Below are positions 18,687-56,035 of a stretch of 64,000 bases of DNA, in pieces (position 1 is the stretch's first letter; each line of letters opens with the position of its first letter). Source of the stretch: Nemertoderma westbladi. Taxonomy: Eukaryota > Animalia > Xenacoelomorpha. The notes beneath the pieces were generated by a model. It worked only from the letters and a program-made list of their open reading frames with translations. It was not told the DNA's origin and ran no database searches. The translations under genes were made by a program, and so were the position numbers. The DNA lies in NCBI GenBank assembly GCA_032718475.1, contig JAUCBJ010006441.1:31380-95379 (forward strand). Reading direction: 5' to 3'.

Positions 18687-18770
18687 AAAAAATGATTCGC
18701 ACCTACTAGGATTCGAACTCAATACCTACTACACGAATTTCCAACGCTTAACCAACTGAGCTACTGAACC
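18687..18770 (-). ncRNA. tRNA-like Pol III unit within the BEL LTR (copy 1)
   Basis: A-box TAGCTCAGTTGG, B-box GAGTTCGAATCC and a T6 terminator. No convincing anticodon or acceptor stem. Confidence 0.6.
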
Positions 18771-19419
18771 ACTTGAACAATGTTATACAAATAGATATAC
18801 TGAATGCAAATGAGGACTTAATGTAATCTTTATAGCAAAGTTAATTCGAACAAAATAAAATTTTGAAATCCACGGCATTTATGAGAATATAATTCTATAC
18901 CGCTCCATGAAAACAGGATATTATCGTGCATAAAATATACGGTTTTCACCAATAATAAATCAAATTATAGAATACTTGGGACGTACTTACATATTTACAA
19001 ATTAAATCTCAACAATAATACCTCTACATAATAATTCGATAGAAAAATAATTACAAATTCAAACTCTACGTATTTAAGGCTTTATTAAGTAAGTACAATA
19101 TAAATCTAAATTATATTCACCAAAATAAATCTATTGCATCTCAAATATTGCATAAATTCAAACAATCACAAATACTAATACTACTTAAATATAAAACAAA
19201 TTGCATAAGTTCGGAATAATTTCAAATAATCACAAGAAAGGCTCACAAGTCTTCCGTCTGCTCTTGCCTTCTATTTACTGCGAATACAAATACTGCTTCT
19301 TTATAAAATATAAATTGCATAATATTCGAAACAATAAATTGCGTAAGTTTGGAATGACTACAAATATAGCACTTTCTAAATATAAATCTTTCTAAATGTA
19401 AATCTTTACTAAATATAGA

Positions 19420-19795
19420 TATAAACTGCATAAGTTTAGAACAATATAAACTGCATAAGTTTAGAACAATATAAACTGCAAAAGTTTAGAACAATATAAA
19501 CTGCATAAGTTTAGAACAATATAAACTGCATAAGTTTAGAACAATATAAACTGCATAAGTTTAGAACAATATAAACTCTTTAGGCATCTCAAATATAAAA
19601 TATAAATCTTTCAAATATAAATTCCTTCTAAATACAAAACTTCCTGAATTTCAAAATTGGAACAATACAAATACATAAGTTTAGAACAATGTAAATTGCA
19701 TAAATTTAGAATAATATAAATTGCATAAATTTAGAATAATATAAATTGCATAAATTTAGAACAATATAAATTGCATAAATTTAGAGCAATATAAA
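19420..19795. repeat. 25-bp AT-rich minisatellite downstream of ORF2 in the BEL element
   Basis: Unit aatataaactgcataagtttagaac. The paralog at ~26220-26470 has fewer copies. Confidence 0.85.
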
Positions 19796-19919
19796 TTTTA
19801 AACAATACAAATTACATAAACAATTCAATTTACATGAACAATACAAAGAAAAACAATACATAAGACAAACAATACATAAGAAAGGCTCACGAGTCTTCCG
19901 TCCACCCTTGCCCTCCCTT

Positions 19920-21350
19920 TTACCGCTTGGTGGATCGAGCCCTGCCGCGTCCTCGAAAACTGCGTACAGGTGACTTTGCTCGCGGTATGGGACTTGTGGG
20001 GCGAGTCACTAGTTTACCTTGGACGTTGGGAGATGGTGCGACCATTTCCTCACATGCTCGTCTATTAGGCATCCCAAATCCTCGACCGACTCCTCGTGAT
20101 CGACCGGTTGTGTCTACCGTTGGTAAAACGTCTGGGAACGCGCGGGAAGCGGACGACGCAGACCCAAGAGAAACTTGCGCCCCCTTTTATCAGCTGGTAT
20201 GTGTCCTAATCCTCCTTGCGGTTCTCTGGGAAGTGACACCGTATCTCGAGTAACTCGAATAGTCGGTTCACTACCCTTTCTTTCTTCAATATTTATAGTT
20301 TTCTTTAGTTGTTGGCTCACTTTCTGAACCCTTATAATCCTGTTCTGTCGAATACGCTCGCTCGTGCGTTTATGGTACAAGGCGGCTCGGTACGCCCATG
20401 CGACGGTTAACCAAGCTCCCTTATTTCGCTTTTCCGTTCGGAAACGATCAAATTCACCATATGTGATACGATTAAACATTTTGGGCAAAGTTTATTCTTT
20501 CGAAAATTTTTGGTGTCATCTCCTTAGCTGAAGTATAATCGTGTGACGTCCAATGGTAAGGTATGCTCGCGAGTCTTCCGCCCCATTCTTCCATCTCTCC
20601 TTCCTCGAAAGCCTTATAGGCTCTGTATAGGCTAAGAGCTTCTTTCTTTTCGCGGGTTGACTGAGTCACCTCTTCCAGCGTAAGTTCAAATGCATCGGGT
20701 TCAACAATCTTAGGTGGACAAACGACAATTTCTCCCACCTTTGGTCCACACATAGCAAATGAATGATATGGATTCGATAAAGGATACCCTCCTTCCTGGT
20801 AGCGTAGTTGTTGATGGTTCGAACACCTCGCCAATATCGGTTCGGGATTTTCTTTATTCAAACGCATCGGAATCGCATTTCGTTGTTCGCGCATACAAGC
20901 ACCGCATTGATAATAAAGTTTATAAACTGAAAATGCTTCCTTTGTTTCTCTATCGTCCCCTCGAGTTCGTCTGTAAAGATGCATTCCATCGAATTCATCG
21001 CGTACCGCGGGCATAGGTTCGTGCGCCTTCAGGTATTGCATAGTATGATACAAATGACTAATTTTGGTATCGGGATCTTCGCTAATATCTCCCGTGTCAC
21101 ATAAAGCGTTGTACGGGTAAAGTTCATTGAAGGTTTTGCGTAAACTTTCTATTCTTTCATTTAACGCATTTTGCCTTCTCTTTAATACGTTCGAGTCATA
21201 TTTGGTCTTTGCGAGTTTCGCTGTACTTTCTGATAAATCCTTTATTCCAAATATGGTGTAATCCTTAGCTCCAAATCGTTCGAATGGCGCTGCTGCTTCC
21301 TCTTGGATATCATATCCCCATCTCGGCTCTCCATGTATCCCTTTCGCCAT
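19920..21350 (-). pseudogene. BEL-A accessory ORF2, copy 1; exonuclease and knuckle region deleted
   Basis: MAKGIHGEPRWG...INFAQNV is joined directly to NRITYGEF (~2.2 kb missing relative to 29455-27258). Ends RSFRGRGRARSTKR-stop. Confidence 0.85.
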
Positions 21351-22012
21351 TATTAGAAGTGTAGTTACATAATCATTGCTACTAGAGGGAATACAACAGA
21401 GTTTATTGTTAGTTGTGAGGAGATGTGAGAGTTTTCGTCTGCCCTTTTGGCTCGACAACGCTCTAACCTCCTACCCATAGCCTAAGATCTAAGGTTTCTT
21501 TAATGACACGCTGTTTCTTATCTAAAATTTTTTGCCGAAATAAAAACGATTTTGGGCTAAACTGGCTGTGAGTCTAAAATACTCACTTTTTGATCCCAAA
21601 CTATTATCAGAAAATAAGCAATCAAGAGTTAGTAATAAATATAGGGAAGTCTATTATTTGACGTAACTTATTGAAACAAGACCGTGTAAATTTTATTAAA
21701 ATTTAAGAAAGGCTCGCGAGTCTTCCGTTCTCTTGTTTCTCTAATTTTAAGTTCCACCCGACTGTACCCTGAAATCTATTCACTGGAGAAAATTTTAAAA
21801 TTTTTTCAAATCCAAATGGATTGTCTAAAATTTCGAAAATGTCTCAATATTGTGAGTTTCAAGTAGAATTCCATTTCTTATACCTACAAATCCCGCTCCT
21901 ATGTGACACATAAGGGTACTACCCTCAATGTTCACATATAAAGACAATGGAATTTTACCGCTGTCTTTACTACAGTGTACAGGTACGTGGAAATCTATTT
22001 GTAAACTCCTTA

Positions 22013-23849
22013 CTATTTACTAACATTAGTTGGAGACTTGTAATCTCCAGACTTGTTTCGCGTCTCTTCAAGAAGTACGAGACGTTGAGTCGGTCTGTCT
22101 ACTGTACGACCGTCAATTGTCCGTACAGTCACAGTTCTTGTCACTCCATCCATAGATGGATGTGTGTCTAAAATTACACCTGTTATCCAGAAGCGTCTTT
22201 TTAGATTCACTTCTGCTAACAGCACATGATCTCCCGCTCTTAAAGCGCGAGTTTTGTTGTACCAACTAGTTCTGGCAGAAATAGAGGGCAAATAATGGTT
22301 TTGCCATATTTCCCAGAATTTGTTAGCCAGTAGTTGCGTGATTTTCCACGCTTTTCTACCGTAGCTATCGCCTTATATTGGAATAGAAATAGGCATTAAT
22401 GTAGTCGGTGCCTGCATTAGCAGGTGTGCCGGTGTTAAAGCAAACTGGGATTGTTTGTCATCGGGTACTAATACTATTGGTCTAGTATTTAGTATTGCCT
22501 CGATTTCAACAAACAATGTTGTCAGTTGGTCGTCTGTCAAGATGTGGTTTACTGGAATTACTTTTGCCATGGCTGTTTTTATAGATCTAATCAATCTCTC
22601 CCAGACTCCGCCTCTCCATGGACTGTCTGGAGGATTAAACTTCCAAACAATCTTGTAAGGACGTAGTTCGTTTGAGATTTGATCATGATCTAATTTCTTA
22701 AAGGCTCTAGCAATTTCATTTCGAGCACCAACAAAGTTTGTACCTTGGTCTGAGTACAAGCATTTTACTAGTCCACGTCTAGCGATAAATCGCCGCAATG
22801 CTAGTATAAAGGCGTTGGTGGAAAGATCCATCACACGTTCAATATGGACTGCCCTACTGGACATGCATGTGAAAATCAGTCCCCAGCGTTTCACTAATAT
22901 ACGTCCACGTTTCGTATGTATGGGACCAAAGCAGTCAATTCCAGTCTATGTGAAAGGTGGTCTGAATGCCTGTAGTCGTGCTTGTGGAAGTTCACTCATT
23001 TCTTGGGTACTTATTCTAGAATGTACCTTTTTACAAATAATACACATACGCGTCACTGAACTTAGTGCTTTACTGGGTCTAATTAATACAAATCTTGTAC
23101 GTAAGTAGGAAAGACAGTGGTGTCTTCCAGCGTGTTTCAGATGTAAATGTGCGTCCAGTATCATTGCACGTTGTAATTCGTGATGTTGTGGTATTATTAT
23201 TGGGTACCTAAAATCAGTATTAAAGTCAAAGTTTTGAAGCCGAGATTTATGACAAATTAAGCCATTATAAATTATCGGACTCCAACTCAATATTGGTGAC
23301 GACTTGATTGGTTGACCTTGACTTATAGATGTGAATTCGCGTGCGAAATATCGTAATTGGTAATGGCGAATTAATTTAATTTCACATCTGTCAATCTCAG
23401 TCAATGTGAGTCGACGTGTAAAGTCGCGTTTGCCTTTAACGTACTGTACAAAACTTACAATCCACGCTAATTTTCGGCACGCGTTTGTCCAAGAATCTGT
23501 CAAATTTACAATACGGTCGACGTAAGTATTTATGACGTCATCAGGTAAGTCAATGGAGAATTTGGAAGGTTTTGTTTTACTAGATGGGCCCACGAGTCCG
23601 CCGGTAAGTATTCCCTTGTTGACTGTTGATCCGTCCGGGTCTACAAGTAATTTGTCCTTCTTCGTCTTCTTACCTTGATTGTCATTACTTTGTGTATCGA
23701 TTCGTAATGGTGGTTTTAACTCTATGGGATCGCTGGGTTTCGGTAAATTTGTTTTTCTGCCGATATTAATCCCAGGTCTCACCGTAGGTTGTAAGGTTGG
23801 TATGTCTCTTGAGCGTCAAGTAACACCTGTATTTACATTAGCGTAGGTA
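22013..23849 (-). pseudogene. pol: BEL-A pol 3' part (integrase), copy 1
   Basis: HHCC zinc finger (HLKH...CIIC), IDCFGP, YSDQGTNF and WRGGVWER, with stops and frameshifts. Confidence 0.92.
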
Positions 23850-25514
23850 TTGGAAGAGACAGTAACAAAATACCCTGCAATATCCTACTGTAAAGTTTGT
23901 GAATCAAATCATAATCCGACCTTCTCACCAAAACAGTAAACTCTAAGTAAGCGAATATATATTGCAGTATTTTGTCTCTTAAAACCGGTGAGGCAGAAAA
24001 CAGTCTACGAACGGACAAACTTCGATAAAACAAAATCCCGCGCAGCGAATCCTAAAATCAGGCTGACTCGCTGACGGATTAAGGGGCTCGTATACTTTGC
24101 CGCGGTGTGATTTATATGGTTGGGATAGAGACGCTAGCTAGGTGCAGAGATCTAGAGATGTCTAACTAGCGGGCAAAGCGCAGTACGGACAAAAGTTAAT
24201 TTTATATATTTTGAGGTGTAAATAATTTCTAACGCGCGTGTGTCTTAATTCTAAACAGTCAAAGTCAGTTTTGCTCCTTCATATATATAATTACTGGGTC
24301 CGGTGTACATTTTACGAATATTCTAATTTTTGTAACTTGTAGGTCCAATACTCACGAATGATAAGGCTCCTTCCCCTTTCATGTATTTCCAGGACTCAAA
24401 TTCAGGCATAAGGTTAATACTACGCCCAGAATTCGGCAATTTAATTTACCAGGTCCCTAATACTAAGAAGAAATGTGTTAGTTTACTACGGTAGGCGTAC
24501 AGTTACTAATAGCTAGCCTCGTGTTCCTATCTAGAATTTTGGTTGCCTAGATGGGTACGGCAACTTCCTAACAGAATGTTGGCGGGGACACGGTAGATGT
24601 TAGTATCCCTAAATAGCCTCAATTTATTTTGCGCCTAGTGTAAACTGCCCTACCGCCTGAACGGTACAATCCCAATTCAGGTAAAACACAGTAACCCTCC
24701 TGGCCTACAAGTTCTAATGCAATGGACACCGTTGTACTACAAATAGTCACAGACGCACCTGCACTTAGCAAGAGTTAGGCGTACAGTTTGCTGCACCCTA
24801 CCAATGTGTATGCCTTGTACCGGTGTGCCTACGTCCTATCTGTGTACTAGTATCTCTGCCTGATCTCCTCTCCCCCGTAGGAATATGAAGGTCTACTGCG
24901 GGTTTTCTCTGAATTAAGACGGTACGGTCCCTAGATGTAATTTTTAGCGCACAGCGTGTCACTACCTCTACCTTCGATCTTTGGTCTTATACTTAGGTAG
25001 CAAGGCATTGAACGCTGTCTAACCTTTCAGGCGATGGGCGAATAACTCAAGAATGATATTGTGGGTTGTCTCCTGTCTACATTCCTCAGATGTTCCCGTT
25101 CATTGCTGTGGCCCGATGTTTAGCCTGCCATCCTGTCCCTCAATTAAGTTCACCGTGGTAAAACATGATAGAAAAACAGATGTAACAAGTATTTCTAACT
25201 TTATTACAGAATATACATAAACGTAACAAGAAACTAATAGATAACTAATAACTAAGTGAAAGAAGAAATAGAAATCGATAACTAATGAATGAAATCGCAC
25301 CTTTTATAGCAAAGTTGTGCTGCAATCAATCGAGAAAATTCTCGATTGTTCTATGAGTTCTAATAGGTTTTTAAAGATAACTATTGGTCCAGCGAATATA
25401 TAACTTGCACGACATTGGTTACTATCTAATAACTGCAATCCCATTGGTTAATCTATTTCGAGCAAATGCAATTTAATTTGTAGCGGTCAATTTAAATGAG
25501 TTGAAACTCTGCAC

Positions 25515-25599
25515 AAAAAATAATTCGCACCTACAAGGATTCGAACTCAATACCTACTACATATAATTTCCAACGCTTTACCGACTGAGCTACTGAACC
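25515..25599 (-). ncRNA. tRNA-like Pol III unit within the BEL LTR (copy 2)
   Basis: A-box TAGCTCAGTCGG, B-box GAGTTCGAATCC and a T6 terminator. Confidence 0.6.
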
Positions 25600-26618
25600 A
25601 CTTGAATAATCATCGTACAAATAGATATAGTAAATACAAATGAGGACTTAATGTAATCTTTATAACAAAGTTAATTCGAATAAAATAAAATTTTGAAAAT
25701 CCACGGCATTTAGAGAATATAATTCTATACCGCTCCATGAAAACAGGATATTATCGTGCATAAAATATACGGTTTTCACCAATACTAAATCAAATTATGG
25801 AATACTTGGGATGTACTTACATATTTACAAATTAAATCTCAACAATAATACCTCTACATAATAATTCGATACAAAAATAATTACAAATTCAAACTTTACG
25901 TATTTAAGGCTTTATTAAGTAAGTACAATATAAATCTAAATTAAATTCACCAAAATAAATCTATTGCATCTCAAATATTGCATAAATTCAAACAATCACA
26001 AATACTAATACTACTTAAACATAAACAAATTGCATAAGTTCGGATAATTTCAAATAAATCACAAGAAAGGCTCACAAGTCTTCCGTCTGCTCTTGCCTTC
26101 TATTTACTGTAAATACAAATACTGCTTCTTTATAAAATATAAATTGCATAATATTCGAAACAATAAATTGCGTAAGTTTGGAATGACTACAAATATAGCA
26201 CTTTCTAAATATAAATCTTTACTAAATTGCATAAGTTTAGAATAATACTGTATAAGTTTAGAATAATATAAACTCCTTTGCATCTCAAATATGAAATATA
26301 AATCTTTCAAATATAAGTTCCTTCTAAATATAAACTTTCTAAATTTCATAAATTCGGAACAATACAAATACATAAATTTATAACAATGTAAATTGCATAA
26401 ATTTAGAATAATATAAATTGCATAAACTTAGAACAATATAAATTGCATAAATTTAGAGCAATATAAATTTTAAACAATACAAATTACATAAATAATTCAA
26501 TTTACATAAACAATTTGATTTACCTAAACAATGCATAAAACAATACATAAAACAAACATAAAAGAAACAATTCACAAGAAAGGCTCACGAGTCTTCCGTC
26601 CACTCCTTCCTTCCCGCT

Positions 26619-29600
26619 TCAACGCTTAGCGGATCGAGCTCTGCCGCGTCCTCGAAAACTGCGTATCGGCGATTTAGCTCGTGATATGGGACTTGTGGGG
26701 CGAGCCACTGGTTTACTTTGGACGTTGGGAGATGGTACAACCATTTCCTCACATATTCGTCTCTTTGTCATCCCAAATCCTCGTCAAATCCCTCGTGACC
26801 GATCTGTTGTATCTACCGCTGGTAAAACGTCTGGGAACGCGCGGGAAGCGGACGACGCAGACCCAAGAGAAGCTTGCGCCCCCTTTTGATCAGCTGGTAT
26901 ATGTCCCGATCCTCCTTGCGGTTCTCTGGGAAGCTAAACCGTATCCCGAGTAATTCGAATAGTCGGTTCGTATCCCCTTCGTTCTTCAACGTTGATAGTT
27001 TTCTTTAACTGTTGGCCCACTTTCTGAACCCTTATGATCCTGTGCTGTCCGTCCTCCCGAGGGTGACGTGCAGATACGCGCCACCGGAGTAGCTGGTATG
27101 TTGGTCGCCTCTAGGACCTCCTCTTCCTCGAATACGCTCGCTCGTATACGTTTATGGTAGAACGCGGCTCGGTACGCCCATGCGACAGTTAACCAAGCTC
27201 CCTTGTTCCGCTTTTCCGTTCGGAACCGATTAAATTCACCATAGGTGATACGATTAACGACTTTCTGGAAATTCCATGTATTCTTATTGTCAGGGTGTAT
27301 CTGCAACAAATATTCGCGCACAACTCGGAATCCGCTATCGTGAGGCAAAATATCAACTACCTCGATGAGTTCATCATATTGCGGCATAGCGGAGATATAT
27401 CCTTCCGACATCATAGTTTGAGGATTTACCGCCCAAAATCCAAGATGCGCTCTCATCGGGAACCGTCTTCTTTGCGCCGATACGTGTTCGTCAGCCAAAT
27501 CTTCCCAATCATCAAATAGTTTTCGCACGAGTTTTACAGATTCGTGTTCGTAAGGTATGTCTCTCAGTTGGCATTCAGATGCTCGATGTCCCTTTATATT
27601 GCAGTAGGTGCATTGAGCCATAAATCTCCAGCAAGTATAAAACGTATGGGACCCTTGATCTCCACACCATCCACAGATTAGTTGAGTTGTAGTAATGTGC
27701 TTTCCACTGCACTTTGTCGAATGATGTCCAGCGACGCCACATTTACCACACATCGTATTAGCAGGGTACCACACTCGCTCATATATAAGATCGCCAATGG
27801 GTCGAGCGCTTCCTCCCACACTATAGTCGTAATCGTCTGGATCAATAGGTTGGTATGTTTCAGAAGGTTGTATGCAAACTACAGCATCTGTTGCTTCTAG
27901 TTGTCGAATCTCCATCTGAGATTTCTTCGGGAGGTTCCTTTCAATCTCAAGAAGTTCCTCTAAAGGATCATCGATGGCCGTCGTTACTTCGAAATCATCA
28001 CCTAAGTGACCGATAGGCGCACGCGTCTGCCGTGATTCGTCCGTAAGCTCCACGATACGTTCTCCTTTATAGGGTAACAATGTAAACATAGATGGTCTTT
28101 CGATAAGAGATCCCGCACAGCGAAGATACACGTCTCGAAATATACTAAATCCTGCTCGAGTGAAGGTCGGAATTGTAGAAGGGTTCGAGAAACCGTCTAA
28201 ACACATCGGTATGAATTCTCCCTTCCGCGTAGAATGTATGATCTTCTCCGAGGCAAAGTGGATGTCTTTTAAGAGTCTGAGACACAATGTCGGCGACTAA
28301 GCAAACATTCACTGATGACTCTATCGCTAAATAATATTGTAGTACCGCTCTTGGAGGTGAAGTAATAGCCCAATATACGCATCCTCTCCATTTGAGCTGT
28401 GATTCAAACTCATTTATATCTGGAGTATCACCTTCTCCATACGTTTCGATATACATTGTTCTTTTACTTTCCTTGTAATCCCAATTAAACATCAAGTAGG
28501 AAATATATCCAGTTCCGGTTTTCTGAGTATCATACTCACGGAAGTATCCTTGTTCTATAGACCACAGTATAAGAGGTCGAGTGTCAACGTAAGGTGTCGG
28601 TAATCGGTCGTCACTGTCCGACATGCCAGCGAAGTCGCTAATTAAGTCCTCTCTTACTCCTGATCCAATCTTTACAACAGTTTTATCTAAAATCATATTT
28701 CTCACCGTCTTTGGTAACATTCTAGCATCGATATTGCAAGCCTGGTCCATTTTCTTTACTATATTTGTGATGAAATGGTGCCGCTTTGTAGTTCCTGGAG
28801 GTATCGGCATTCAATTGTCACTCCTTTGTCTACTGAAAACGTGCAAAACTCCGTCTGCCGCTCTAATTTGTATAGTCTTGGAGGTTAGACTCTGCTGATG
28901 GCTGCCGCCCTCGTTATCATAAAACATGTAACCGTTTTCCTGAAACGATCTAAACGTCCTATTCCATTCGTCCAATAATTCTTCCGAAGGTTGCCAAATC
29001 TTCTCTATGTCTTTCTCGTCCTCGAAACGAATGACTTTACCTTGCCAGTCCGCAGCGATATCTGTATCCGACTCAAAGGTTCCTGTTCCAATCCATAAGC
29101 GAATTGTTTTGGTTAAATATCCTTTCAGGTTACTCGGGGCTATATCAGCGCCAGCTCTATCTAGTTCCCTAAAGTCTTGAATATGAGGCGGAACATTATG
29201 CACGACCTTTTGCGTAATATGTCTACGTAAATCATATATCTTAACCATATCGCTTAGAACAACTGCAGGAAGAAACTCTAAGTTCGAAATGATTTCCGGA
29301 TGATCCACAATAGGTATTTCATACGTTGTATCTTGTCGAACTGGTATACTAATAGGGAAATTGAGTGTCGTACTCAATGGTTTCGTAGTTGAAGTACTAT
29401 ACGGTTGCATTTCTCTTGTCCTTTCCGGGGATGCAATCTGTAGTCTCTGAATAACGTTTTGAGCAAAGTTTATACTCTCGAAAACTTCCGGTGTCATCTC
29501 CTTAGCTGAAGTTTGATCGTGTGACGTCCAATGGTAAGGTAGGCTCGCGAGTCTTCCGCCCCATTCTTCCATCTCACCTTTCTCGAAAGCCTTGTAGGCT

Positions 29601-30328
29601 CTGTATAGGCTAAGAGCTTCTTTCTTTTCGCGGGTTGACTGAGTCGCCTCGTCCAGCGTAAGTTCGAATACATCGGGTTCAACAACCTTAGGTGGGTAAA
29701 CGACAATTTATCCCGCCTTTGGTCCAGTCATAGCGAATGAATGATATGGATTCGATAAAGGATACCCTCCTTCCTGGTAGCGTAGTTGTTGATGGTTCGA
29801 ACACCTCGCCAATATCGCTTCGGGATTTTCCTTATTTAAACGCATTGGAATCGCATTTCGTTGTTCGCGCATACAAGCACCGCATTGATAATAAAGTTTA
29901 TAAACTGAAAATGCTTCCTTTGTTTCTCTATCGTCCCCTCGAGTTCGTCTGTAAAGATGCATTCCATCGAATTCATCGCGTACCGCGGGCATAGGTTCGT
30001 GTGCCTTTAGGTATTGCATAGTATGATACAAACGACTAATTTCGGTATCGGGATCTTCGCTAATATCTCCTGTATCACATAAAGCGTCGTACGGGTAAAG
30101 TTCATTGAAGGTTTTGCGTAAACTTTCGATTCTTTCATTTAATGCATTTTGCCTTCTCTTTAATACATTCGAGTCATATTTCGTCTTTGCGAGTTTCGCT
30201 GTACTTTCTGATAAATCCTTTATTCCAAATATAGTGTAATCCTTAGCTCCAAATCGTTCGAATGGCGCTGCTGCTTCCTCTTGGATATCATATCCCCATC
30301 TCGGCTCTCCTTGTATCCCCTTCGCCAT
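26619..30328 (-). pseudogene. BEL-A accessory ORF2 (~1230 codons): unknown N-terminal domain, DEDDy-like 3'-5' exonuclease, three CCHC-type knuckles, Arg-rich tail
   Basis: Stitched from ORFs 29708-30328, 28811-29572, 28145-28810 and 26986-28287 plus a tail ending at stop 26619. Exonuclease-like motifs FYDNEG, LPKTVRNMILDKTVVKIGSGVREDL, YVDTR and QYYLAIES. Knuckles CGKCGVAGHHSTKC, CGWCGDQGSHTFYTC and CTYCNIKGHRASEC. Confidence 0.8.
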
Positions 30329-30990
30329 TATTAGAGGTATGGTTACATAATCATACTACTAGAGGGAATACAACAGAGTTTATTGTTAGTTGTGAGGAGA
30401 TGTGAGAGTTTTCGTCTGCCCTTTTGGCTCGACAACGCTCTAACCTCCTACCCATAGCCTAAGATCTAGGGTTTCTTTAATGACACGCTGCTTCTTATCT
30501 AAAATTTTTGCCGAAATAAAAACGATTTTGGGCTAAACTGGCTGTGAGTCTAAAATACTCACTTTTTTGATCCCAAACTATTATCAGAAAATAAGCAATC
30601 AAGAGTTAGTAATAAATATAGGGAAGTCTATTATTTGACGTAACTTATTGAAACAAGACCGTGTAAAATTTAATTAAAATTTTAAGAAAGGCTCGCGAGT
30701 CTTCCTTTCTTGTTTCTCTAATTTTAAGTTCCACCCGACTGTACCCTGAAATCTATTCACTGGAGAAATTTTTTAAAAATTTTTCAAATCCAAATGGATT
30801 GTCTAAAATTTCGAAAATGTCTCAATATTGTGAGTTCCAAGTAGAATTCCATTTCTTATACCTACAAATCCCGCTCCTATGTGACACATAAGGGTACTAC
30901 CCTCAATGTTCACATATAAAGACAATGGAATTTTACCGCTGTCCTTACTATGGTGTACAGGTATGTGGAAATCTATTTGTAAACTCCTTA

Positions 30991-33900: not shown

Positions 33901-36900
33901 TAACTGCTGAGGACACCAAATCTCTGGATGGCACATTCACAAGAATGCTACGCCGGGTACATTGTGTCAAGTACAATGCACACATCTCCAACCAGACACT
34001 ATATAACATTGGAGGTGTCTCATTGGTTCCCCCAAGCTTGACACTAGAACAAAATCGCCTCCGCTTTGCAGGACATTGCTTTCGCCGTGAGGACCAGCCA
34101 GTGCATAATCTTGTACATTGGCAGCCTCATGGAGTGAATAAGCATGGTGGACAGCCCATGACTTTCTTGAGACGCATCTTAAAGGACACTGACCTTAAAG
34201 ATGCGGATGATCTAGCAAATGTCATGGGTGATAGGGAGTTGTGGCGGTGCAATTTTGTTGACAAGCCGGCACAGCATTCTTAAAAATGCAGCTGCAATGC
34301 AGCATGCCGATCCTAGTAGTAGTAGTTCTTACCTTGATTGTCAGTACTTTGTGTGTCGATCCCTAATGGTGGTTTTAACTCTATGGGATCACTGGGTTTC
34401 GGTAAATTTGATTTTCTGCCGATATTAATCCCAGGTCTCACCGTAGGTTGTAAGGTTGGTATGTCTCTTGAGCGTAAAGTAACACCTGTATTTACATTAG
34501 CGTAGGTACTACCCACATCTGTAATACATGAGGTTTCACTGTACTTATGGTTACTCAAGGGTGTCAAGTTTGGTAGTTTGTTAATAGAAGGCCGCTCCAA
34601 TAGGGAAACTGCGGCTTTACTATGTGTCGCTACGTTACTAATGTCTGGTAGATCATCTTGTGAAATGTCTGGTAAAATGTTTCGCGGAACTTCCGGCGAA
34701 ACGTCTAGTGACATGTCTGGCAAAATGTCTAGTTGACCGTCTAGTAACGTGTCTGGTTTTGCGTCTGGTAACGAGTCTAGTTGACCGTCTGGCGATACGT
34801 CTGGTAACATGTCTGGTTGACCGTCTGGCGATACGTCTGGTTGAGAAAGGCTCGCAAGTCTTCCTGCCCTAACTTTGTGAGTTATATTCTTCCATTTCGC
34901 CTTTGGTTTCTTCTTAAGTTTCGCCGTTGTCTTTTTCTTTGCTTTACCTTTCTTTGGTTTTTTAATTTCGGCGTCCTTAGGAATAGTATTAGACTTGTTA
35001 TCGTAAAGTGGCGGCCAGTGTTGTGTCGCTCTTTGTAAGAATTGTGGTCCGTGTTGCCAAAATTTCTTGTTTTCCGGTTTACAGAATTCCTCAGGCATCA
35101 TTCCTCGTGACGCAATATCAGCTGGATTTTGTGATCCGGGACAATGTCGCCAATCTTCTTTTATTGAACGGTCTAGAATTTCTGCACGACGGTTAGCTAC
35201 GAATGTCTTGAATTCAAGTGTGTCGTTGTTTATATAAAATAAAACTAACGTCGCGTCAGTCCAATAAAATATCTGTAAACTTGACTGTAGTTCCGTCTGT
35301 ATGAGGTTTACAATGGTCGTTGACAGAGTTGCGGCTTGTAGCTCAGCGCGTGGTGTCGTCATATACTTAGTAGGCATTGTTTTAGCCTTAGAAGTAATGA
35401 GCGATACATCAAACTCATCTGAGTCTACTTGTCTGCGCAAATACGCTGTCACACCAAAGCCGTTGTCACTGGCGTCTGAAAAACAATGTAATTCTAAGTT
35501 GTCAGGAAATGTCGTCTGTAATGGAAAGTACACCCGGGGTATGGAATAATCCTCTAGCGAAGATAATTGCGCCTCCCAAGTCTTCCATAAGTCCACTTGT
35601 TCGGATGAGATCGGTTCGTCCCATGTCAGTCCATCTTTCCAAATACTGCGCATATATATTCGCGCTTGCAGTATTATTGGGCTGATGAAACCTAAGGGGT
35701 CGAACAGTCTGCTTAGTTTCGACAAGCAAGACCTCTTTGTCAGAGAATCCCCTTCAGCGTCCAGTTTTACTTTCACTCGAAAGTTGTCTGTGTTCGGGTC
35801 CCAAAATAGTCCCAACACCTTGGTCGTCGGCAGTGGTTCGAACTCTAAGTCAATATCACCACCCCCACGTTCAGTCGTTTCGAATGAATTTACCAATTCG
35901 GTGCTGTTTGAGGCAAACTTAGTGAGGTTAAAACCTCCGCCTGCTAAACAGTCCCGTAATTGATGTGCTACTGTGATAGCACTTTCTACTGTGTCACAAC
36001 TCTGTAATCCATCGTCCACATAAAAGTCTCGTTCTACGATCCGGATTACCTCTGGGTCATACATATGTTTCTGATCCCTAGCGGTCTGTTTTAGGGCGAA
36101 CATAGTGCAGTTTGGGCTGTCCCTGGCACCGAAAACGCGAACTTGCATTTGGTAAGTCGCCGGTGGTTGACTTAAGTCTCCATCCGGGTACCAGAGGAAC
36201 CTCAAACTGTCTCTGTCTCGCTCTAACACTCGCACTTGGTGAAACATCGCTTCTACGTCACAAGTAAATGCTACTTGGCGCTGACGGAAGCGCATAATCA
36301 CCCCCATGAGATAATTATTCATGTTTGGTCCATCCATCAACTCACTGTTGAGAGACATTCCTTCAAACAGGGCCGCGCAGTCGTTAACTACGCGTACTTT
36401 ATCAGGTTTGTCGGGGTGTCTCACGTAGTGATGTGGCAAATAGTATGTCTGGTCTGTCACAATCTCTGGGTTTGTCATCCTGATAGCGTACCCTTTTGTC
36501 AAATACGTCTCCATCTGAGTATTGTACTGCAGATGGGCTTTCTCGTCCTTTAATAAACGTTGTCGTATTGAGTGTAGACGTCTTAAGGCTAGCGGATAAT
36601 TGTTGATAAGTTTAGGGCTTTGGCTACGCCATAGCATCCCTACCTCATAATGTCCGTCTTTCGTCTGGCGGATAGTATCTTCCATGATCTTCAAAGATTG
36701 TTTCTCTTGTTCCGACATACACGGTTCGTAACTACCGGGTTCTGCTGTATCTTGTTCTAACCACCTGATAGTTTTCTCTGTTAATTCTTTGTCTAATTCA
36801 GCTTGTTCCACTTGACAATTCTTTAATGTGTCGACATCGATATTGACGGGCATCGTTAATGTTATTGGTGTAGATAGACTCGCAAGCCTTCTGGCGTTAT

Positions 36901-37609
36901 CATTTGTCGTCGATGGAACCTCTGCCTGACTCGTCTTCTTCTCAATCTCTATACTAACCTTGTGGATTGGCTGCTCTTTGTGACTTATCATATTTGCTAC
37001 ACACGTCGTACCTGTAACGTTGTCGTGTTTTGTCGAACGTAGTGTAGTATAGTCTATGTCAGGTGAAAAGGAATGAATCGAAGTTGTAGTTAGTAAACTA
37101 CATGTACTTTGTACATCGTCTTCCTCATCACTTATATCCAGTGTGAGCACAGGCGCTCGAGTATACCACCCTATCGGAGTTCTACAGGCGTAAGCATTTC
37201 CCGCTACGACTACCAATGGTCTGGTTTCCCACACTTGATGTAGATTGAATTGGTCCATCCCGATCAGCATTGCTACCGACCGATAGTTGACAGGACATTC
37301 AGGTACACCAAGGTGTCTGAAATACTTACGGTCCTCTAAGGATTGCTCCGGCACTGGACCCAGTAGGTTACTAAAGTCCTTGGTGGCCGCAAAAGTCAAA
37401 TCCTTAAAGGGTAACAAAGACCTCTCCTTTTCGCTATGTTGCGATTTCGGAAGAAGAGTGTCCAAGTTTAACTTAACTCGTGTCACTGGTATTGCACGTT
37501 GTCCATGCATAGCGCTACTGATGAGGCCTGTTAGGCCGAAACGTGCGTATAGCGCTGGTTCAACCCCCGGTGACGCGCTCCCATTTTTTCCACTTCTGAA
37601 CAAACCCAT
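30991..37609 (-). pseudogene. pol: BEL-A pol (RT, RNase H, integrase) interrupted by an RTE insertion
   Basis: YYLPHH, KVRVVNDC, DVEAMFHQV, FYVDD, FDPLG, HCFSDAS, PRAEL, WTDA and NPADIASRG. Integrase at 30991-32576. Confidence 0.95.
32658..34325 (+). mobile_element. 5'-truncated RTE-clade LINE, family 2, with an intact 536-aa RT ORF
   Basis: QNGFR, FVDFFKAFDSV, GVRQGD and FADD motifs, a (TAG)n tail, and an 8-bp TSD ttcttacc (32650-32657 and 34326-34333). The empty site is visible at ~23667. Confidence 0.96.
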
Positions 37610-37629
37610 AATATTACACCATTAATATT

Positions 37630-40600
37630 ATGAGAGATACCATTCGCCAGACCGCGAATGGCCACTACGAAGTAGGCATGTTGTGGCGCAATGGACAACC
37701 TAAGCTTGTTAACAACTACCCGCTTGATTTGAGGCGACTCAAATCAATAAGGCAGCGATTGTTGCGTGATGAGACGGCCCATATGCAATACAATGCACAA
37801 CTTCAGACGTATCTCCAAAAGGGATACGCCATTAGGATGTTAAATCCCGAGGTAACCACAGATCAGACATATTACCTGCCACATCCTTTTGTTCGACACC
37901 CGGACAAACCTGGCAAGGTGCGTGTAGTCAACGACTGCGCTGAGCTTTACCAAGGGATGTCTATGAACAGCGAACTGATGGACGGGCCGAATATGAATAA
38001 TTACCTCATGAAGGCGGGGTAGCTCAGTTGGTTGAGCGCCGGGCCTGCAATCTAATGGTTGTAGGTTCAGCCCCGCCAGGGTCCACTCAGCCTTTCATCC
38101 ACTGGGGTCGGTAAAATGAGTGCCAGTTAAATAACTGGGAGCAAATCTTGGGATAGGAGTAGCGCCCACCCCTACCCTCGGGTAGCAGCTATCGAAAGAG
38201 GAGCCTTCGGGTCGCCTCCGGCTTCGGCCGACTGTTTGCTTTTTTTTTTACCTCATGGGAGTCCTAATGCGTTTTAGACAACGCAAAGTGGCTTTCACCT
38301 ATGACGTAGAGGCCATGTTTCACCAGGTTAAGGCTTTGGAGCGGGACAGGGACAGTTTGAGGTTTCTTTGGTATCCGGACGGAAATTTAGAACTTCCGCC
38401 AGAAACTTACCAAATGCAGGTAAGAGTTTTCGGAGCCAGGGACAGCCCCAACTGCACCATGTATGCCTTAAAGCAAACTGCATTGGACAGACAAGGCCAA
38501 TTTGACCCAGAAGTAGTTCGGACAGTGGAATGAGACTTCTACATGGATGACGGCCTCAAGAGTTGTGACACTCTGGAGCGCGCTACGACCGTAGCACACC
38601 AACTCCAAGATTGTCTCGCTGAGGGCGGATTTCACCTTACGAAGTTTGCTTCCAACAAACCCGAACTAGTGAACTCATTCGACCCGACGGATCGCAGTGG
38701 AGGAGACTTGGACTTAGACCTAGAACCTCTACCTACGACCAAGGTATTAGGACTTAGTTGGGACCCGAACACCGACAATTTTAGGGTATGTGTAAGGTCC
38801 AACGGACAGATTCGACATCTCACTAAGAGGACTTGCTTATCGACCATGAGTTGATTGTATGACCCATTGTGTTTCATTAGTCCAGTGATCCTACATGCTG
38901 GGATCATACTCCGCAGCATTTGGCAAGCCGGACTGGAATGGGTTAGCTGAGCAATGGAGGGACTGGGAAGCCCAACTGACGTTCTTACAAGACTATACCA
39001 TACCAAGGGTATACTTTCCTTTGCAGACCACCTTTCCTGCCGATTTAGAGCTTCACAGCTTCAGTGACGCTAGTAAGGATGGACTGGGGTTACTTTATAC
39101 CTTAGACGACAAGTGACATTGGACAGCTACGAAGTGTCTCTCGTTACTTCAAGGGCTAGAACAATGCCATTGAAGTATATGACTGTACCTCATGGAGAGC
39201 TGCACGCCGGGACGATATCCACTGATATTGTCAGTCTAGTTCAACGCGAGCTGGAGGCTAACTTGAAGGTCACATATTGGACGGATGCGACGTTGGTACT
39301 TTGGTACATAAACAACGAAACATTCAAGTTCAAGACTTTCATAGCCAACAGACGGGCTGAAATATTAGACCGGTCACTCAAACAAGATTGGCGTCACTGT
39401 CCAGGGAAGCTGAACCCAGCTGACATCGCGTCACGGGAGATGCTACCAATTGACTTTTGTAAACCGGACAATAAATCTTTTTGGTTTAGAGGACCCGATT
39501 TCCTTCAGCGACCATCAGACGAATGGCCACCGTTATTCGACGCGACAACTAATACCATACCGGAGGGTGCCGAGATAAAAATCGACACAGTTGTCAAATC
39601 TAAAGCGAAAGCCAATGCTAAGGTCAAGGGGAAACAAGGACGGACTAAATCTGATGACCTGGACGCTAGACCTGACATTACGCCAGATGTCTCACCAGAC
39701 TCTCGACCAGACGTTCGTACGAATCTTTCACCAGATGTTTCACGGGAGATTTCACCAGACGTTTCACCGGATTGTTCACCAGATTACTCGCCAGATTATT
39801 CACCAGAAGTGACACCAGATTGTTCTCTGGATTATTCGCCAGATTGTTTTATGGAACTCTTGACAGATTGTCTACCGGACGTCTCACCAGACTTTCCACC
39901 AGACATCTCAACAGACTGTCCACTAGACTTTAGACCAGACATTCTGACAGAAGCTACGCCAGACTTTCTTTGGGACTGACGACAGGACATTTCGCCGGAT
40001 GTTCCGCGCTATGTCTCACCAGATATCTCACCAGACTGTTCACCGGACGCCTCACCAGACTGTCTACTAGACTTTCCACTAGACGACTCGATGGAAATAA
40101 AAGACTTGAACTCTAAGGACGCAATGAATTCATTGGAGCGGACTAGTACACACCCATTAGGTATTAAAAACTTACCGCATTTGACTTCCTTGGATGACAA
40201 AGGTGTGGCCACAGCGATCACACTCCGCTCAAGGAAAATACTTGACTTACCGTCTACAGGTAAACGTGTGACTAAGGTTAGGAAGCTTACGAGCTCACAG
40301 GAACACACTAGTACTGTAGAGTTGAAACCGTTACTGCCAGTCAATTCACTAGGTGTGGACGGTAAAGGTAAGACCGTGGAGATTGAAATACTTGAGGACT
40401 CCGACAAACCTATTGCACAAAGGGAGACACCTACCGGAAGGCCCGTGGGCCTACCAAGTCCAAACAAGTATCCACATTTTGACTATACCTTACCTGAGGA
40501 CGTCACCAACACTTATGTTGACAGGATAGTAAACCTAACTAGATCATGGACTGACGCGTGACGCAAGTTAGCATGGCTCAAACGTTTGAGACAATATGCC

Positions 40601-41997
40601 AGAGGCAAACGCGACTTTCCTAGAAGACTTACCTTAGAGGAAGTTGGTCTTTGTGAAGTTGATATTATTCGTCATTATCAATTGCGATATTTCGCACGAG
40701 AGTTCACAGCGATCAATCAGGGTAAACAGATCAAGTCTTCACCGATTTTGAGTTGGAGTCCGATTATCTATAGGGGCTTACTTTGTCACAAGTCCAAACT
40801 CCAGAACATTGACTTTGCACTTGACTTTAGGTATACTATCATCATACTGCAACACCATGAGTTACAGTACGACTCAAACACGTAGGTAGACATCACTGTT
40901 TATCACACTTATGCTCGAGGTTCGTACTGATTAGGCCTAGCAAGGCACTGAGTTTGGTAACACGGAACTGTATGATTTGTAAGAAGGTGCACGCGAGGAT
41001 ACGACACCAAGAAATGAGTGAACTACCACTAGCGAGATTACAGGCTTTTAGACCCCCTTTCACTGAGACAGGGATAGACTGTTTTGGACCCATAATCGCG
41101 AAACGCGGAAGGGTACAGGTAAAACGTTGGGGATTGATCTTCACTTGCATGGCCAGCAGAGCTGTCCATATAGAGCGTGTGACAGACTTGACCACCAACG
41201 TCTTTATCCTAGCCTTACGGCGATTTATCGCTAGACGTGGATTGGTCAACTCCATTCATTGCGAGCAAGGGTCTAAATTTGTGGGTGCAAGGAATGAAAT
41301 TACCAGAGCTTTAAGGAAGTTGGACCAAAACCAGATTTCCAAGGAACTACGTCCTCACCGTATTGTTTGGAGCTTTAACACTCTTGACAGTCTGTGGAGA
41401 GGCGGCTTTTGGGAAAGGCTGATTGGCTCGATAAAGACGGCTATGGCGAAAGTAATAGCGATGCAACACATACTAACAGACGACCAACTGACGACGTTGT
41501 TAATAGAAATCGAAGCGGTTTTAAATACTAGACCAATCGCTTTGATCCCAGACAATAACGACTCACAGTTTGCCTTGACACCAGTTCACCTGCTTATGCA
41601 GGCGCCGACGACATTGTTGCCCACTTCGGTACCTGTCGATAGCGACGGATATGGCAACAAAGCTTGGAAAATCACTCAGTTGCTAGCCAACAATTTCTGG
41701 GAAATATGGCAGAAGCACTATTTGCCCTCTATTTCGACCAGAACCTCTTGGTATCTTAATACCCGATGTTTGAGATGAGGTGACCATGTTTTATTGGCTG
41801 AAACCAATCTGAAGAGACGGTTTTGGCTGACTGGAGTCATTTTGACCACACACCCTACATCTGGTGTAGTAAGGACAGTTACTGTACGGACTATTGACGG
41901 ATGTAGCGCAGATAGGCCTGTACAACGTCTCGTGCTCCTTGAGGAGACTAGAAACGAGACAGGAGACTACAAATCTCCACCCAATCTTAGTAAATAG
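37630..41997 (+). pseudogene. pol: BEL-B pol (RT, RNase H, integrase)
   Basis: YYLPH, DVEAMFHQV, FYMDD, HSFSDAS, NPADIASR, IDCFGP and WRGGFWER across fragmented ORFs. Confidence 0.92.
38011..38247 (+). mobile_element. tRNA-derived SINE inserted in the BEL-B RT region
   Basis: tRNA-like head (tagctcagttgg...ctgcaat...ggttcagccc), a central box gtccactcagcctttcatcc...gtcggtaaaatgagt resembling widespread SINE core domains, a T-rich tail, and a 10-bp TSD ttacctcatg (38001-38010 and 38248-38257). Confidence 0.93.
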
Positions 41998-42720
41998 AGA
42001 TGTGGGACCCTTGATGGCCGCCACATAGACTTACCGTATTTTAGTAATTTAGTAGTTTGTATTACTGTATGTGCATTTTGTATTCCTCTTCACTGTAGAT
42101 AGAGACAGCGGTGGAATTCCATTGTCTTTATAAGTGAACATGGAGGGTAGTACCCTTATGTATCACATAGGAGCGGGATTGTGTGTACAGTAGGAATGGA
42201 ATTCTTTCAAACAATTTTTCAAAAATTATTAGACAAATCCATTTGGTTGGATTTAAATTTAAGAAAAATGAATCTCGAGTGAATGCGAATTCTAGAATAC
42301 AGCTAGATAAAAAATTAAAATTGGGGAGGACAAGAGCGGATGGAAGGCTTGCGAGCCTACCGATAATTTTTTTTGGAAAAGAAAATCGGCCTTGTTCTAC
42401 GTAGTCGTGTCTACTATTATTTTAGACCGAATTAATTCTTGACTGCACTATTTTTCTTTGGGAAGTAGTTTGGGAAATTAAAAGGTGAGTATTTTAGACT
42501 CGCGGCAAGTTTACCCAGAATTCGTTTTTTATCGGCACATTTTTTGGATTAGGAGCCAGTGCGAAATCACACGAAACCCGAAGTCATTAGGCAAATGGGT
42601 AGGGGTTTTAGAGCAAAGTTGAGCCAAAAGCCGACAAACTCTAAGTCTCCTCACATCTAACCTCTATTTTGTGCTTCATCTAGTAGAAACGTAACGATAT
42701 GTAACCATATATACACGTAT

Positions 42721-44755
42721 ATGATGGCGGAGAAGATTTATAAGGAGTTACGTCAGGGGTTTACGCAGGAACAGGAGCACCAGGCACCGTTTAATCGTTA
42801 TGGAGCCAAAAACTTTAACGTGTTTGGAGTGGAGAGTATGGCTAGGAGTACAGCCAAGCTCGCTAAATCCAAGGCGGACCCGAATGTTATGAAACAGCGA
42901 TTGGACGCTTATAACAAAAGAGCGGAGGAGTTACGCGCGGAATTCAATGCGTTGTATCCCTACGATGCGTTATGCGACGCCAGTGACATTTGCAAGGATC
43001 CAGACATGGAGATATGCCGATTATATCATACGCTGCAATATTTGATGGCGAGCGAACCCTTTCCTGCAGCCAGGGACGAATTCGATGGAATGCATCTTTA
43101 TAGACACGCTCGAGGAGCGGATCCAGAGACAAAGGATGCGTTCTCCATTTATAAACTGTTTTACAAATGTAGAGCATGTATGCGCGAGCAAGACAACACG
43201 ATTCCTATGCGCTTGAACTCGGAGAACCCCGAGCCGATATTAGCACACCAAAGTCTCCAAAGTGCACCATGCTTCATGCCACCAAAGTCTGCGTTACCAA
43301 GAAGGCGGATACCCTTTGATGAATCCGTACCATTCGTTTAAGATGAGTGGACCAAACGCGGGCGAGATTGTTATTTACGAACCCAAATTAGTCGAACCAG
43401 ACGTCTATAGTATGGTAGTGGATGAGTCTAATAAGTCGACACAAGAGAAACGGGAAGCATTGAGCCTCTACGGGGCGTACAAGGCGTACGAGAAAGGCAA
43501 GATCGAGGAGTTCAGCGGAAGGCTCGCGAGCCTACCATTTTACTGGATATCCCACGATCAAACCGAACCTAAGGAGATGACACCCGAGCTCTTCGATAGT
43601 ATCACCTTTGCTCAGCGTTTGTCGCAGAGACTACAGATACCTCATGTCGAGATGACGCGAGAACCTCAGCCCCATCCTACTAAAGCGGTAGTACCAGTCG
43701 CGAGACCAACCAGCTTTCCTATTAGCATACCAACCCGAGAGGAGACAACTTATGAGATTCCTATAGTTGAACATCCGGAGATCATTTCGAACCTGGATTT
43801 CCTCCCATCGGTTACCTTTGGTGATGTGTTAGAGGCGGCAGAGTTGCGTAGAATGATAGTTCAGAAAATCGTACGCAACGTACCTCCACATATTACAGAC
43901 TTTAAGGAAGTGGATCGCGCGGGGACGGATATCGCACCTTGTATCTTGCGAGGATATTTAACGAAAACGATTCGATTATGGATCGGAGTCGGCACGTTTG
44001 AAACCAACACCGATATTGCGACCAATTGGACCGGAAAACCTATTAGTTTCGACGATGAAAAGTCCATAGGGAGAATTTGGAACCCTACTAACGATTTACT
44101 CGATGTTTGGGATGCAACTAGCCGATCTCTGAAGGAGAATGGTTATATGTTTTATGATAATGAAGGAGGAAGCCATCAGCAAAGCCTCATTTCAAAGACC
44201 ATACAAATTCGAGCACCCCTCCACGAATAATCTTGCAATACTATTTGGCGATAGAATCTTCAGTAAACGTTTGCTTCATCGCCGATGTAGTGTCTATCTA
44301 GAACTCTAAAGCGACATCCGTTATGTCTCGGTGAAGGACATACCATTTACGACGGAGGAAGGACGCATACTGATGTATTCCGCCGATTTCTCCAACCCTT
44401 TTATAACACCGATGCGCACTGCAAAGTTATCACGCAAGCGGGACTTTGTGTTTTCAGGGACGTTTATCTCACTCACGCGGGAAGCCTAGTCGACAGACCG
44501 TCGATGTTGACGTTAGTACCCTACGACGGGGAACGCCACGCGGAATTCAAAGGCCCGGAAGGATCCTGGAAGGCTCACGAGCCTACTGCCCATCATGACG
44601 ATGTGGATCCAACCGAGTTTGCAATAATAGATGAACCGTCGCGGCAACTCATAGAGATAGAAGAGAACCTTCCGAGGAAGACGCGAACTGAGATACGCGA
44701 GTTAGAGAAAAGCGATGCCATGGTTTGTGTACAACCTACGGAGACGAAATACCGA
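42721..44755 (+). pseudogene. BEL-B accessory ORF2, internally deleted in the exonuclease domain and 3'-truncated
   Basis: Homologous to A ORF2 (RDEFDGMHLYR, LRYQEGGYPL, GYMFYDNEGGSHQQSL). At ~44215 it jumps to LQYYLAIESSV. Confidence 0.85.
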
Positions 44756-56002: not shown

Positions 56003-56035
56003 ACTACTACTAGGATCGTCATGCTGCATTGCTGC

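Follow-up and report, generated by a model that had tools for sequence, protein, structure and literature searches.

A 64,000-nucleotide (nt) stretch of Nemertoderma westbladi DNA (contig JAUCBJ010006441.1, positions 31,380 to 95,379; this whole stretch is called the window below) contains broken copies of a BEL/Pao-type retrotransposon that carry one 20-nt near-palindrome, GGAAGRCTYGYGAGCCTWYC, over and over again, always in the orientation of the element. The dyad, which can be written GGAAGRCTYG|YGAGCCTWYC, recurs at eight distinct positions spaced 0.5–2.3 kb apart and spread over ~11 kb, in coding and non-coding DNA, and where its sequence has diverged, both arms have in some cases changed together. 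Taken together, this points to an element that depends on pairing, is specific to one strand and changes in concert across its copies. Our reading of the sequence, offered tentatively and with less than even confidence, is that the motif would be a cis signal of the sense strand, used for self-pairing of the genomic RNA, for binding of a zinc-knuckle protein encoded by the element, or for both.

The host of the motif fills 17.1–45.8 kb of the window, which consists of three broken copies of a single long terminal repeat (LTR) retrotransposon family, here called A1, A2 and B:

23911–37621, minus strand: copy A2, 5′-truncated, delimited by Pfam hits and a self-BLAST map
17110–23849, minus strand: copy A1, a 5′-truncated paralog of A2 with integrase (IN), a second open reading frame (ORF2, shortened by a deletion of 2.2 kb) and the 3′ region
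37624–45828, plus strand: copy B (subfamily B), 5′-truncated and head-to-head with A2, identified by Pfam hits

In sense, A2 reads protease–reverse transcriptase–RNase H (PR-RT-RNase H), a Pro/Asp-rich linker, IN, ORF2 and ~3 kb of 3′ non-coding DNA, and is interrupted at 32657–34326 by a fragment of a long interspersed nuclear element (LINE) on the opposite strand. The identity of A1 and A2 varies by block between 83 and 96%; subfamilies A and B, which lie in inverted orientation, are 67–72% identical in nucleotides. By its PR-RT-RNase H-IN order, with Pao-type PR/RT-RNase H and DUF5641, the element belongs to BEL/Pao (Belpaoviridae): Pfam matches Peptidase_A17 (E 9.4e-43) and DUF5641 (E 1.5e-21), and Integrase_H2C2 reaches 21.4 bits, under its cut-off of 25.5. 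The 120 best pol relatives have the same Pfam sets at 32–44% identity; the nearest are ordinary BEL/Pao polyproteins, the best-scoring named ones coming from marine invertebrates. Four DNA sequencing runs from three studies also contain the family, with 1,470 to 120,635 contig pieces on 25.9–45.0 kb.

How often does the motif recur, and is it confined to these copies? With up to two mismatches, the 14-mer AGGCTCGCGAGCCT gives 11 matches against 0.01 expected (100 shuffles); the sites at 19239 and 26068, which have three mismatches to the 14-mer, are recovered by a weight matrix. Together with an unfiltered covariance model, the weight matrix yields 17 sites, all of them inside A1, A2 or B and all scoring best in element sense. 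The other DNA of the window (~37 kb of LINE fragments, another LTR-like element and satellites) holds no match at or above 12 bits, and the best covariance-model match outside the elements has an E value of 1.8. Tandem repeats aside, the motif is the sole dispersed repeated 10-mer in A2 and B. What the first-pass annotation had said of the recurrence is borne out: each of its 14 listed starts carries the core or a near variant, the motif is restricted to the elements in a single orientation, and the degenerate sites that it placed near 23585 and 28015 are there (20-mers 23583–23602 and 28012–28031), although it missed the A2 twin of the first, at 32566–32585. Its 14 sites are not independent, however: A1 and A2 sites are paralogous, at offsets of 6.7–9.0 kb, and four B sites are orthologous to A sites, so the catalog reduces to eight distinct positions, all of them present in A2 and four common to both subfamilies. 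In the order of the A2 sense strand, the sites are as follows:

Site 1, A2, 36873–36892, minus strand: AGAAGGCTTGCGAGTCTATC, in the PR-RT linker, read as RRLASL
Site 2, A2, 34845–34864, minus strand: GRLASL in translation, in the linker that follows RNase H
Site 3, A2, 32566–32585, minus strand: degenerate, GGCGGACTCGTGGGCCCATC, in the linker before IN, with G-C for A-U and a U·G pair
Site 3, A1 twin, 23583–23602, minus strand: found by weight matrix and covariance model
Site 3, B ortholog, 40436–40455, plus strand: GGAAGGCCCGTGGGCCTACC, with C-G for U-A
Site 4, A2, 30686–30705, minus strand: non-coding, between pol (stop codon 286 nt away) and ORF2 (ATG at 30328, 358 nt away)
Site 4, A1 twin, 21707–21726, minus strand: found by weight matrix and covariance model
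Site 4, B ortholog, 42342–42361, plus strand: non-coding, with a purine box upstream
Site 5, A2, 29538–29557, minus strand: inside ORF2, read as GRLASL
Site 5, A1 twin, 20560–20579, minus strand: one change, GAGCAT, read as RLASI
Site 5, B ortholog, 43517–43536, plus strand: inside ORF2, 19 of 20 nt identical, the sole site with a perfectly palindromic 14-nt core
Site 6, A2, 28012–28031, minus strand: degenerate, GGCAGACGCGTGCGCCTATC, inside ORF2 in a different frame (QTRAP; KAHEP in B), with G-C for U-A
Site 6, B ortholog, 44568–44587, plus strand: inside ORF2
Site 7, A2, 26578–26597, minus strand: 3′ non-coding, 389 nt past the ORF2 stop, with a purine box before it
Site 7, A1 twin, 19880–19899, minus strand: found by weight matrix and covariance model
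Site 8, A2, 26065–26084, minus strand: 3′ non-coding, with the center TGTG and a purine box before it
Site 8, A1 twin, 19236–19255, minus strand: found by weight matrix and covariance model

Five of these positions (1, 2, 3, 5 and 6) lie in coding frames and three (4, 7 and 8) in non-coding DNA. Sites 1–3 fall in poorly conserved linkers of pol (between PR and RT, after RNase H and before IN), and sites 7 and 8 flank a 25-bp tandem array in the 3′ non-coding region. A half-match at 35586 was rejected as a site, being non-palindromic. The linker after RNase H (34762–34841 in A, 39751–39845 in B) is built from short in-frame tandem repeats coding for (S/L)PD(V/I)-type peptides, with units that differ between A and B; site 2 stands at the start of this linker in A. 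Viral contigs contain 13 matches to the motif and metagenome contigs 60 loci, in each case as single sites; a weak second match (at least 14 bits) accompanies 7 of these 73 loci, tblastn finds a relative of pol or ORF2 at none of them, and they are chance matches.

The symmetry of the motif extends beyond the core by which it was recognized. It had been described as a 14-bp palindrome with a GGA flank; this word does recur, but a perfect 14-mer palindrome is found only at 43520, and the symmetry spans 20 nt, so that the GGA on the 5′ side faces a WYC on the 3′ side that complements it in part. Pairing was counted over 12 non-redundant sites, each of which pairs at 8 or 9 of its 10 positions, a level that only 0.9% of element 20-mers reach (at least 8 of 10 pairs). 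On the sense strand 103 of the 120 cells pair (84 Watson-Crick, 19 G·U), compared with 95 on the antisense strand; in the 8-bp stem, 82.5% of cells pair, as against 32–60% when the partner column is slid. Three cells, at two of the pairs, carry double changes that preserve the dyad: U-A to C-G in B at 40436, which makes the paired compensatory change proposed earlier for 40439 a real one; U-A to G-C in A at 28012; and A-U to G-C in A at 32566. The U·G pair at 32566, where B has C-G, looks like an intermediate.

The center of the motif behaves as if it were paired too. The four letters there read YGYG at all but one of the 12 non-redundant sites, and the departures from CGCG (T at position 9 four times and at position 11 five times, A at position 10 once and at position 12 never) are compatible with G·U pairing on the sense strand by 9:1 (one-sided binomial P 0.011, or 0.02 when one orthologous pair is counted once). 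The sense strands have no general excess of TG over CA (665 versus 761 in A, 408 versus 483 in B). CpG decay was discarded as the source of the variants: CpG observed/expected is ~1.0–1.1 in the elements (17110–37621 and 37624–44650) versus 0.83 elsewhere in the window, so methylation-driven CpG loss is not indicated in these copies. Because the center also behaves as paired, a duplex between sites or between molecules fits better than a hairpin; different sites are mutually complementary, and predicted homodimer energies range from −11 to −35 kcal/mol. A kissing contact through a CGCG loop, as the first reading of the sequence had it, is unlikely, the loop being only 4 nt.

If the motif is a palindrome, why does it always face the same way? 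The question bears on an explanation to which we give a low probability, that the sites are double-stranded DNA targets of a host or element factor, be it an activator, a chromatin opener or an insulator. Dimeric factors usually bind dyad sites such as this one of 20 bp, the elements have the CpG content of unmethylated DNA (observed/expected ~1), and the central 8 bp, CTCGCGAG, match all but the outermost base pair on either side of the 10-bp TCTCGCGAGA, the CGCG element bound by BANP/Kaiso. Here, unlike in that element, the word is 20 nt long, oriented and intragenic; the letters that flank its core are G/C rather than T/A, and exact CTCGCGAG, although its five occurrences in the window all lie within sites, is present at only 5 of the 17. 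The site upstream of ORF2 (site 4) has a parallel in the palindromic motif of Sireviruses, which occurs in 8–32 copies with extras upstream of an additional ORF (PMC2829016). Still, the sites extend across 11 kb of coding sequence and are not clustered at a promoter, and Pfam finds no DNA-binding domain in ORF2. The dimeric DNA-binding protein envisaged in the first-pass annotation, if symmetric, would leave the polarity of the motif unexplained. A symmetric dimer predicts neither a single orientation at eight positions, nor the 9:1 bias of the center, nor what is seen at position 6, where all four orthologous pairs have A in subfamily A but G in B, a change on one arm only; and joint changes of both half-sites, such as U-A to G-C, should weaken a sequence-specific site. 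A one-sided change is, by contrast, expected if the sites follow a trans-acting partner, and we infer from the alignment that the concerted change at position 6 may record co-evolution with a trans-acting protein, either Gag or the zinc-knuckle protein of ORF2.

Copies of a short palindrome need not do anything at all: RT template switching could have copied one about the element, or it could be a selfish mini-palindrome, tolerated wherever it landed. The sites do lie where the protein tolerates change (linkers, the intergenic stretch and the 3′ region); direct copying yields one orientation without selection; site 2 is absent from B; and tests of synonymous sites and of folding, given below, show no significant excess. 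In addition, contigs of the sequencing runs join 26064 to 26572, and 30705 and 34864 to 25961 (a further copy ~100 nt after site 8), as if copies recombined or varied in number, but each joint is a single contig with 21-nt sides and may be an effect of repeat alignment. We nevertheless regard a functionless by-product as improbable. Four positions survive ~30% nucleotide divergence, with the symmetry restored by double changes, and a change at position 6 in four of four pairs is unexpected for inert relics. Within an A1/A2 block of only 83% identity, moreover, the 20-mer of site 7 is identical at 20 of 20 letters, whereas the box that precedes it has diverged. None of the 40 variable places listed (of 1681) lies in a site, a count that is uninformative on conservation.

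Nor does the encoded peptide account for the motif. Sites 1, 2, 3 and 5 share a frame, G-R-L-A-S-L, and the three sites in pol stand at the PR/RT and RNase H/IN borders, as repeated protease cleavage sites (GRLAS/L) between polyprotein domains might; RLASL, as had been noted, has two occurrences in the pol frame of A2 and a single one in ORF2, in A2 as in B (A1 reads RLASI). A protein signal nonetheless fails to explain three non-coding positions, or site 6, which is in another frame and encodes different residues in A and B (QTRAP and KAHEP), both versions being palindromic; site 3 likewise reads GGLVGP in A and GRPVGL in B with the dyad kept. In these linkers the peptide occurs in 0 of the 120 best pol relatives, which contain four RLASL and one RLASI elsewhere, three of the RLASL beginning a conserved RLxSLKRR helix before RT. 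The first-pass annotation had already set protein constraint aside, rightly on this evidence, and a repeated cleavage site strikes us as very improbable indeed.

A second feature, which the first-pass annotation did not remark on, accompanies the dyad. Purines make up 69% of the 20 nt that precede the 12 sites, compared with 53% in the elements, and none of 20,000 resamplings attains that mean; the left half of the motif consists of purines only, and the non-coding sites of A and B have a common box, RGARGRMAAGRGNRGAY, directly before GGAAGR. Because a purine box precedes the sites, they can be read as resembling polypurine tracts (PPTs): copied from the 3′ PPT, they would serve as internal plus-strand primers and give an unusually long element many second-strand starts, with the dyad positioning RNase H cleavage or halting strand displacement. 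Such primers would account for the sense orientation, the 0.5–2.3 kb spacing, the placement in coding and non-coding DNA alike and co-variation with the element’s own RT/RNase H. There are precedents in a published account of Sireviruses (PMC2829016), which describes multiple identical PPTs with an inverted repeat at the PPT/LTR junction and cites Ty1 PPT2 and the HIV-1 central PPT; shared with these is a repeated, purine-rich plus-strand word that enters coding regions. Yet the known internal PPTs are one to a few in number, uninterrupted and identical to the 3′ PPT, whereas here the boxes are interrupted and variable and it is the dyad that is conserved. The longest uninterrupted purine runs of A2 (14 and 13 nt) lie elsewhere, only 3 of its 21 runs of at least 9 nt adjoin a site, and boxes at coding sites are weaker, upstream purine content being 55–65% at 6 of the 12 sites. 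A primer does not require a dyad, which leaves the double changes unexplained, and with no LTR definable in the window no site can be placed at a 3′ LTR. On balance, internal priming is an unlikely explanation of the motif. Site 8 was also considered as a PPT/LTR junction and dropped, no matching terminus having been found.

What, then, would read a signal of the sense strand? In the reading that we tentatively favor, the RNA copy of the sense strand would be read at the 20-nt dyad sites, which might pair between two genomic RNAs, or from site to site within one, as an extended duplex rather than a lone hairpin; pairing could serve dimer linkage, genome condensation or packaging. The sites may also be bound during genome packaging by a zinc-knuckle protein of the element, Gag or ORF2, and would then evolve following their reader. 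ORF2 is broken in all three copies: in A2 it occupies 26986–30328 on the minus strand, starts with an ATG at 30328 and is disrupted by one frameshift and two in-frame stops; in A1 it lies at 20472–21470 and in B at 42661–44965. The protein, encoded downstream of pol, is some 1100 residues long, and its C-terminal third bears three CCHC zinc knuckles; the B version is without ~200 residues and without the knuckle region. Nucleic-acid binding fits these knuckles, and ORF2 is a candidate on that ground: Pfam matches zf-CCHC at E 0.026, under the cut-off, and the Atlas neighbors are zf-CCHC families only, with scores up to 0.89. The protein collection holds no relatives of ORF2 at near or longer lengths, Pfam gives nothing at E 0.01 or below, PDB sequences offer no meaningful match, and the AlphaFold model has a mean pLDDT (predicted local distance difference test) of 31.5, too low for use. 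A suspected DEDD exonuclease motif in ORF2 found no support.

A bolder version of the same idea is a genome-wide “zipper,” in which at least eight self-complementary 20-mers would join two genomes, or fold one, and would be read by a co-evolving zinc-knuckle ORF2 or Gag. We think it doubtful; if true, dimerization and packaging would be encoded at many dispersed sites, whereas retroviruses and Ty elements have a single signal in the 5′ leader.

Of the earlier suggestion of iterated cis-sites, the strand-oriented cis element stands as the best reading, but a number of observations weigh against it. In subfamily A the proposed sense hairpin has little stability (−0.4 to −3.4 kcal/mol) because of an A·C mismatch at 6·15, present in seven of the eight A2 sites, and reaches −6.0 to −9.6 kcal/mol in subfamily B; folded within 40 nt of context, the 12 canonical sites do not surpass shuffled sequence (z −1.29 to +1.03), and the dyad stem appears in the minimum-energy fold of all four B sites but of only two of the eight A2 sites. 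The covariation score of 0.195, against 0.135 ± 0.014 in shuffles of which 1 in 500 matches it, comes from a control that related sequences without structure can exceed, and simulated random decay retains as much pairing in 0.01–0.16 of trials per diverged site. Conservation of the primary sequence is above that of the flanks, but modestly so: between A and B the orthologous 20-mers are identical at 14, 16, 19 and 13 of 20 letters (62 of 80), compared with 59–67% (~63%) in the 150-nt flanks. The synonymous constraint anticipated at coding occurrences does not reach significance at site 5 (5 of 7 codons conserved, background 0.46, P 0.17). B lacks an equivalent of site 2, and pairing does not explain the purine box. 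Finally, all evidence on the motif comes from three broken copies in one 64,000-nt window, all of them 5′-truncated, and the gag gene, 5′ leader, primer-binding site (PBS) and LTR pair of the family were not found in this window.

Is there anything like this among known retroelements? The known cis signals of LTR retroelements (dimer linkage, packaging, PPT and enhancer arrays) are single or clustered and lie in non-coding ends; here, an oriented dyad word threads coding sequence every 0.5–2.3 kb and is kept across ~30% divergence. The Su(Hw) array of gypsy is one tight, non-palindromic cluster in the 5′ untranslated region: gypsy, too, is an LTR retrotransposon with iterated sites, in its case for one factor, but the sites of the present family are dispersed and palindromic. 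Retroviral dimerization initiation site (DIS) and PAL elements, self-complementary dimer-linkage sequences of genomic RNA, come closer, since each of the 12 non-redundant sites is self-complementary on the sense RNA (8–9 of 10 positions pair, and homodimers are predicted). In Ty1 (PMC6844567), PAL1 and PAL2 of the 5′ untranslated region are self-complementary and mediate dimerization of the genomic RNA, with alternative contacts, and PAL3, in gag, is dispensable. The likeness lies in palindromes of genomic RNA that pair within or between molecules, possibly at more than one contact point, and in coding sequence in the case of PAL3 (PMC6844567). The difference is that the known PAL/DIS words are 6–16 nt long and cluster in the 5′ leader, whereas a 20-nt word with a purine box occurs here in at least eight copies over 11 kb; the sites are in pol, ORF2, the intergenic stretch and the 3′ region, and the leader is missing from the window.

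In copy number, there is a parallel in plants’ Ty1/copia Sireviruses, whose RM motifs are element-specific, CpG-containing dyads of 10–20 nt in 8–32 copies that vary little within one element, with extras tied to an additional ORF; clustered in non-coding DNA, in the U3 part of the LTR and just upstream of env, they bear a CGG-CCG signature and are proposed to be transcription-factor sites (PMC2829016). The present family shares a dyad motif in at least eight copies per element (eight in A2) and an extra ORF. Its sites, unlike the RM motifs, are dispersed single copies, strictly oriented, coding at five of eight positions and devoid of CGG-CCG, in an animal BEL/Pao element, and only site 4 lies upstream of ORF2. 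The literature yields the motif strings only in unrelated primers and the like, and searches for BEL/Pao elements that have an additional ORF or a palindromic motif turned up no account of this arrangement. Should the favored reading prove true, a retroelement would be able to distribute such a signal over its whole genome, and for BEL/Pao elements, which have been little studied, the motif would offer a compact, easily mutated handle on how genomes pair, are packaged or prime their second strand; the change of all sites in concert between subfamilies would be an experiment of nature on how a signal co-evolves with its reader. If the motif is instead a by-product, it documents the spread and persistence of short palindromes in a retroelement.

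A ninth site, found after the fact, is a lead only:

32092–32111, A2, minus strand: weak candidate, GGAAGACACCACTGTCTTTC, in the region coding for the IN zinc-binding (HHCC) domain, with an A1 twin at 23109–23128

Its outer arms are those of the motif, its center is different, and its stem is 8 bp; the covariance model gives E values of 0.49 and 1.7. In B (40885–40904) the stem is kept through two synonymous changes, A-U to U-A. The fold reaches −10.9 kcal/mol (z −3.4) in A2 and −7.1 kcal/mol (z −1.7) in B. The motif was also considered as a PBS or tRNA mimic and rejected: a T arm would need a longer loop, and only two sites are preceded by TGG. An m6A (DRACH) site created by the A at position 6 was another idea set aside. 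Rfam and tRNA scans gave no matches.

Some further observations concern the copies and their surroundings. A2 and B meet head-to-head within 3 bases (37621/37624), and the truncation within PR-RT falls at a different point in each; this pattern points to an inverted rearrangement and not to two clean insertions. Copy B has acquired a tRNA-like sequence (GGGGTAGCTCAGTTGG...) at 38010–38248. Each of the four runs has contigs in which this sequence is missing and 38000 is joined to 38248, which makes it a later insertion resembling a SINE (short interspersed nuclear element); ARAGORN calls no tRNA there. The LINE fragment inside A2 is not in A1, has a 91% copy downstream and shows by far the highest summed depth in the contig runs; the LINE-type fragments of the window lie at 32657–34326, 54674–56006, 10058–11005 and 52496–54145, and a frame at 32634–34283 encodes RVT_1 and DUF6451. 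A 46-bp tandem unit both closes copy B (44763–45828) and opens the window (1–1766), the DNA beyond the two arrays being unrelated. A gag-like ORF at 13922–15088 on the minus strand (DUF7041, under its cut-off), a weak integrase-like ORF at 16422–17123 on the same strand and a 96% inverted repeat pair (8730–9706/12839–13825) appear to be the remains of another LTR-type element, free of the motif. Two satellites complete the window: a 26-bp unit repeated 120 times at 49081–52251, and a 21/39-bp unit repeated ~400 times from 56036 to the window’s end at 64000, open in several frames on both strands.

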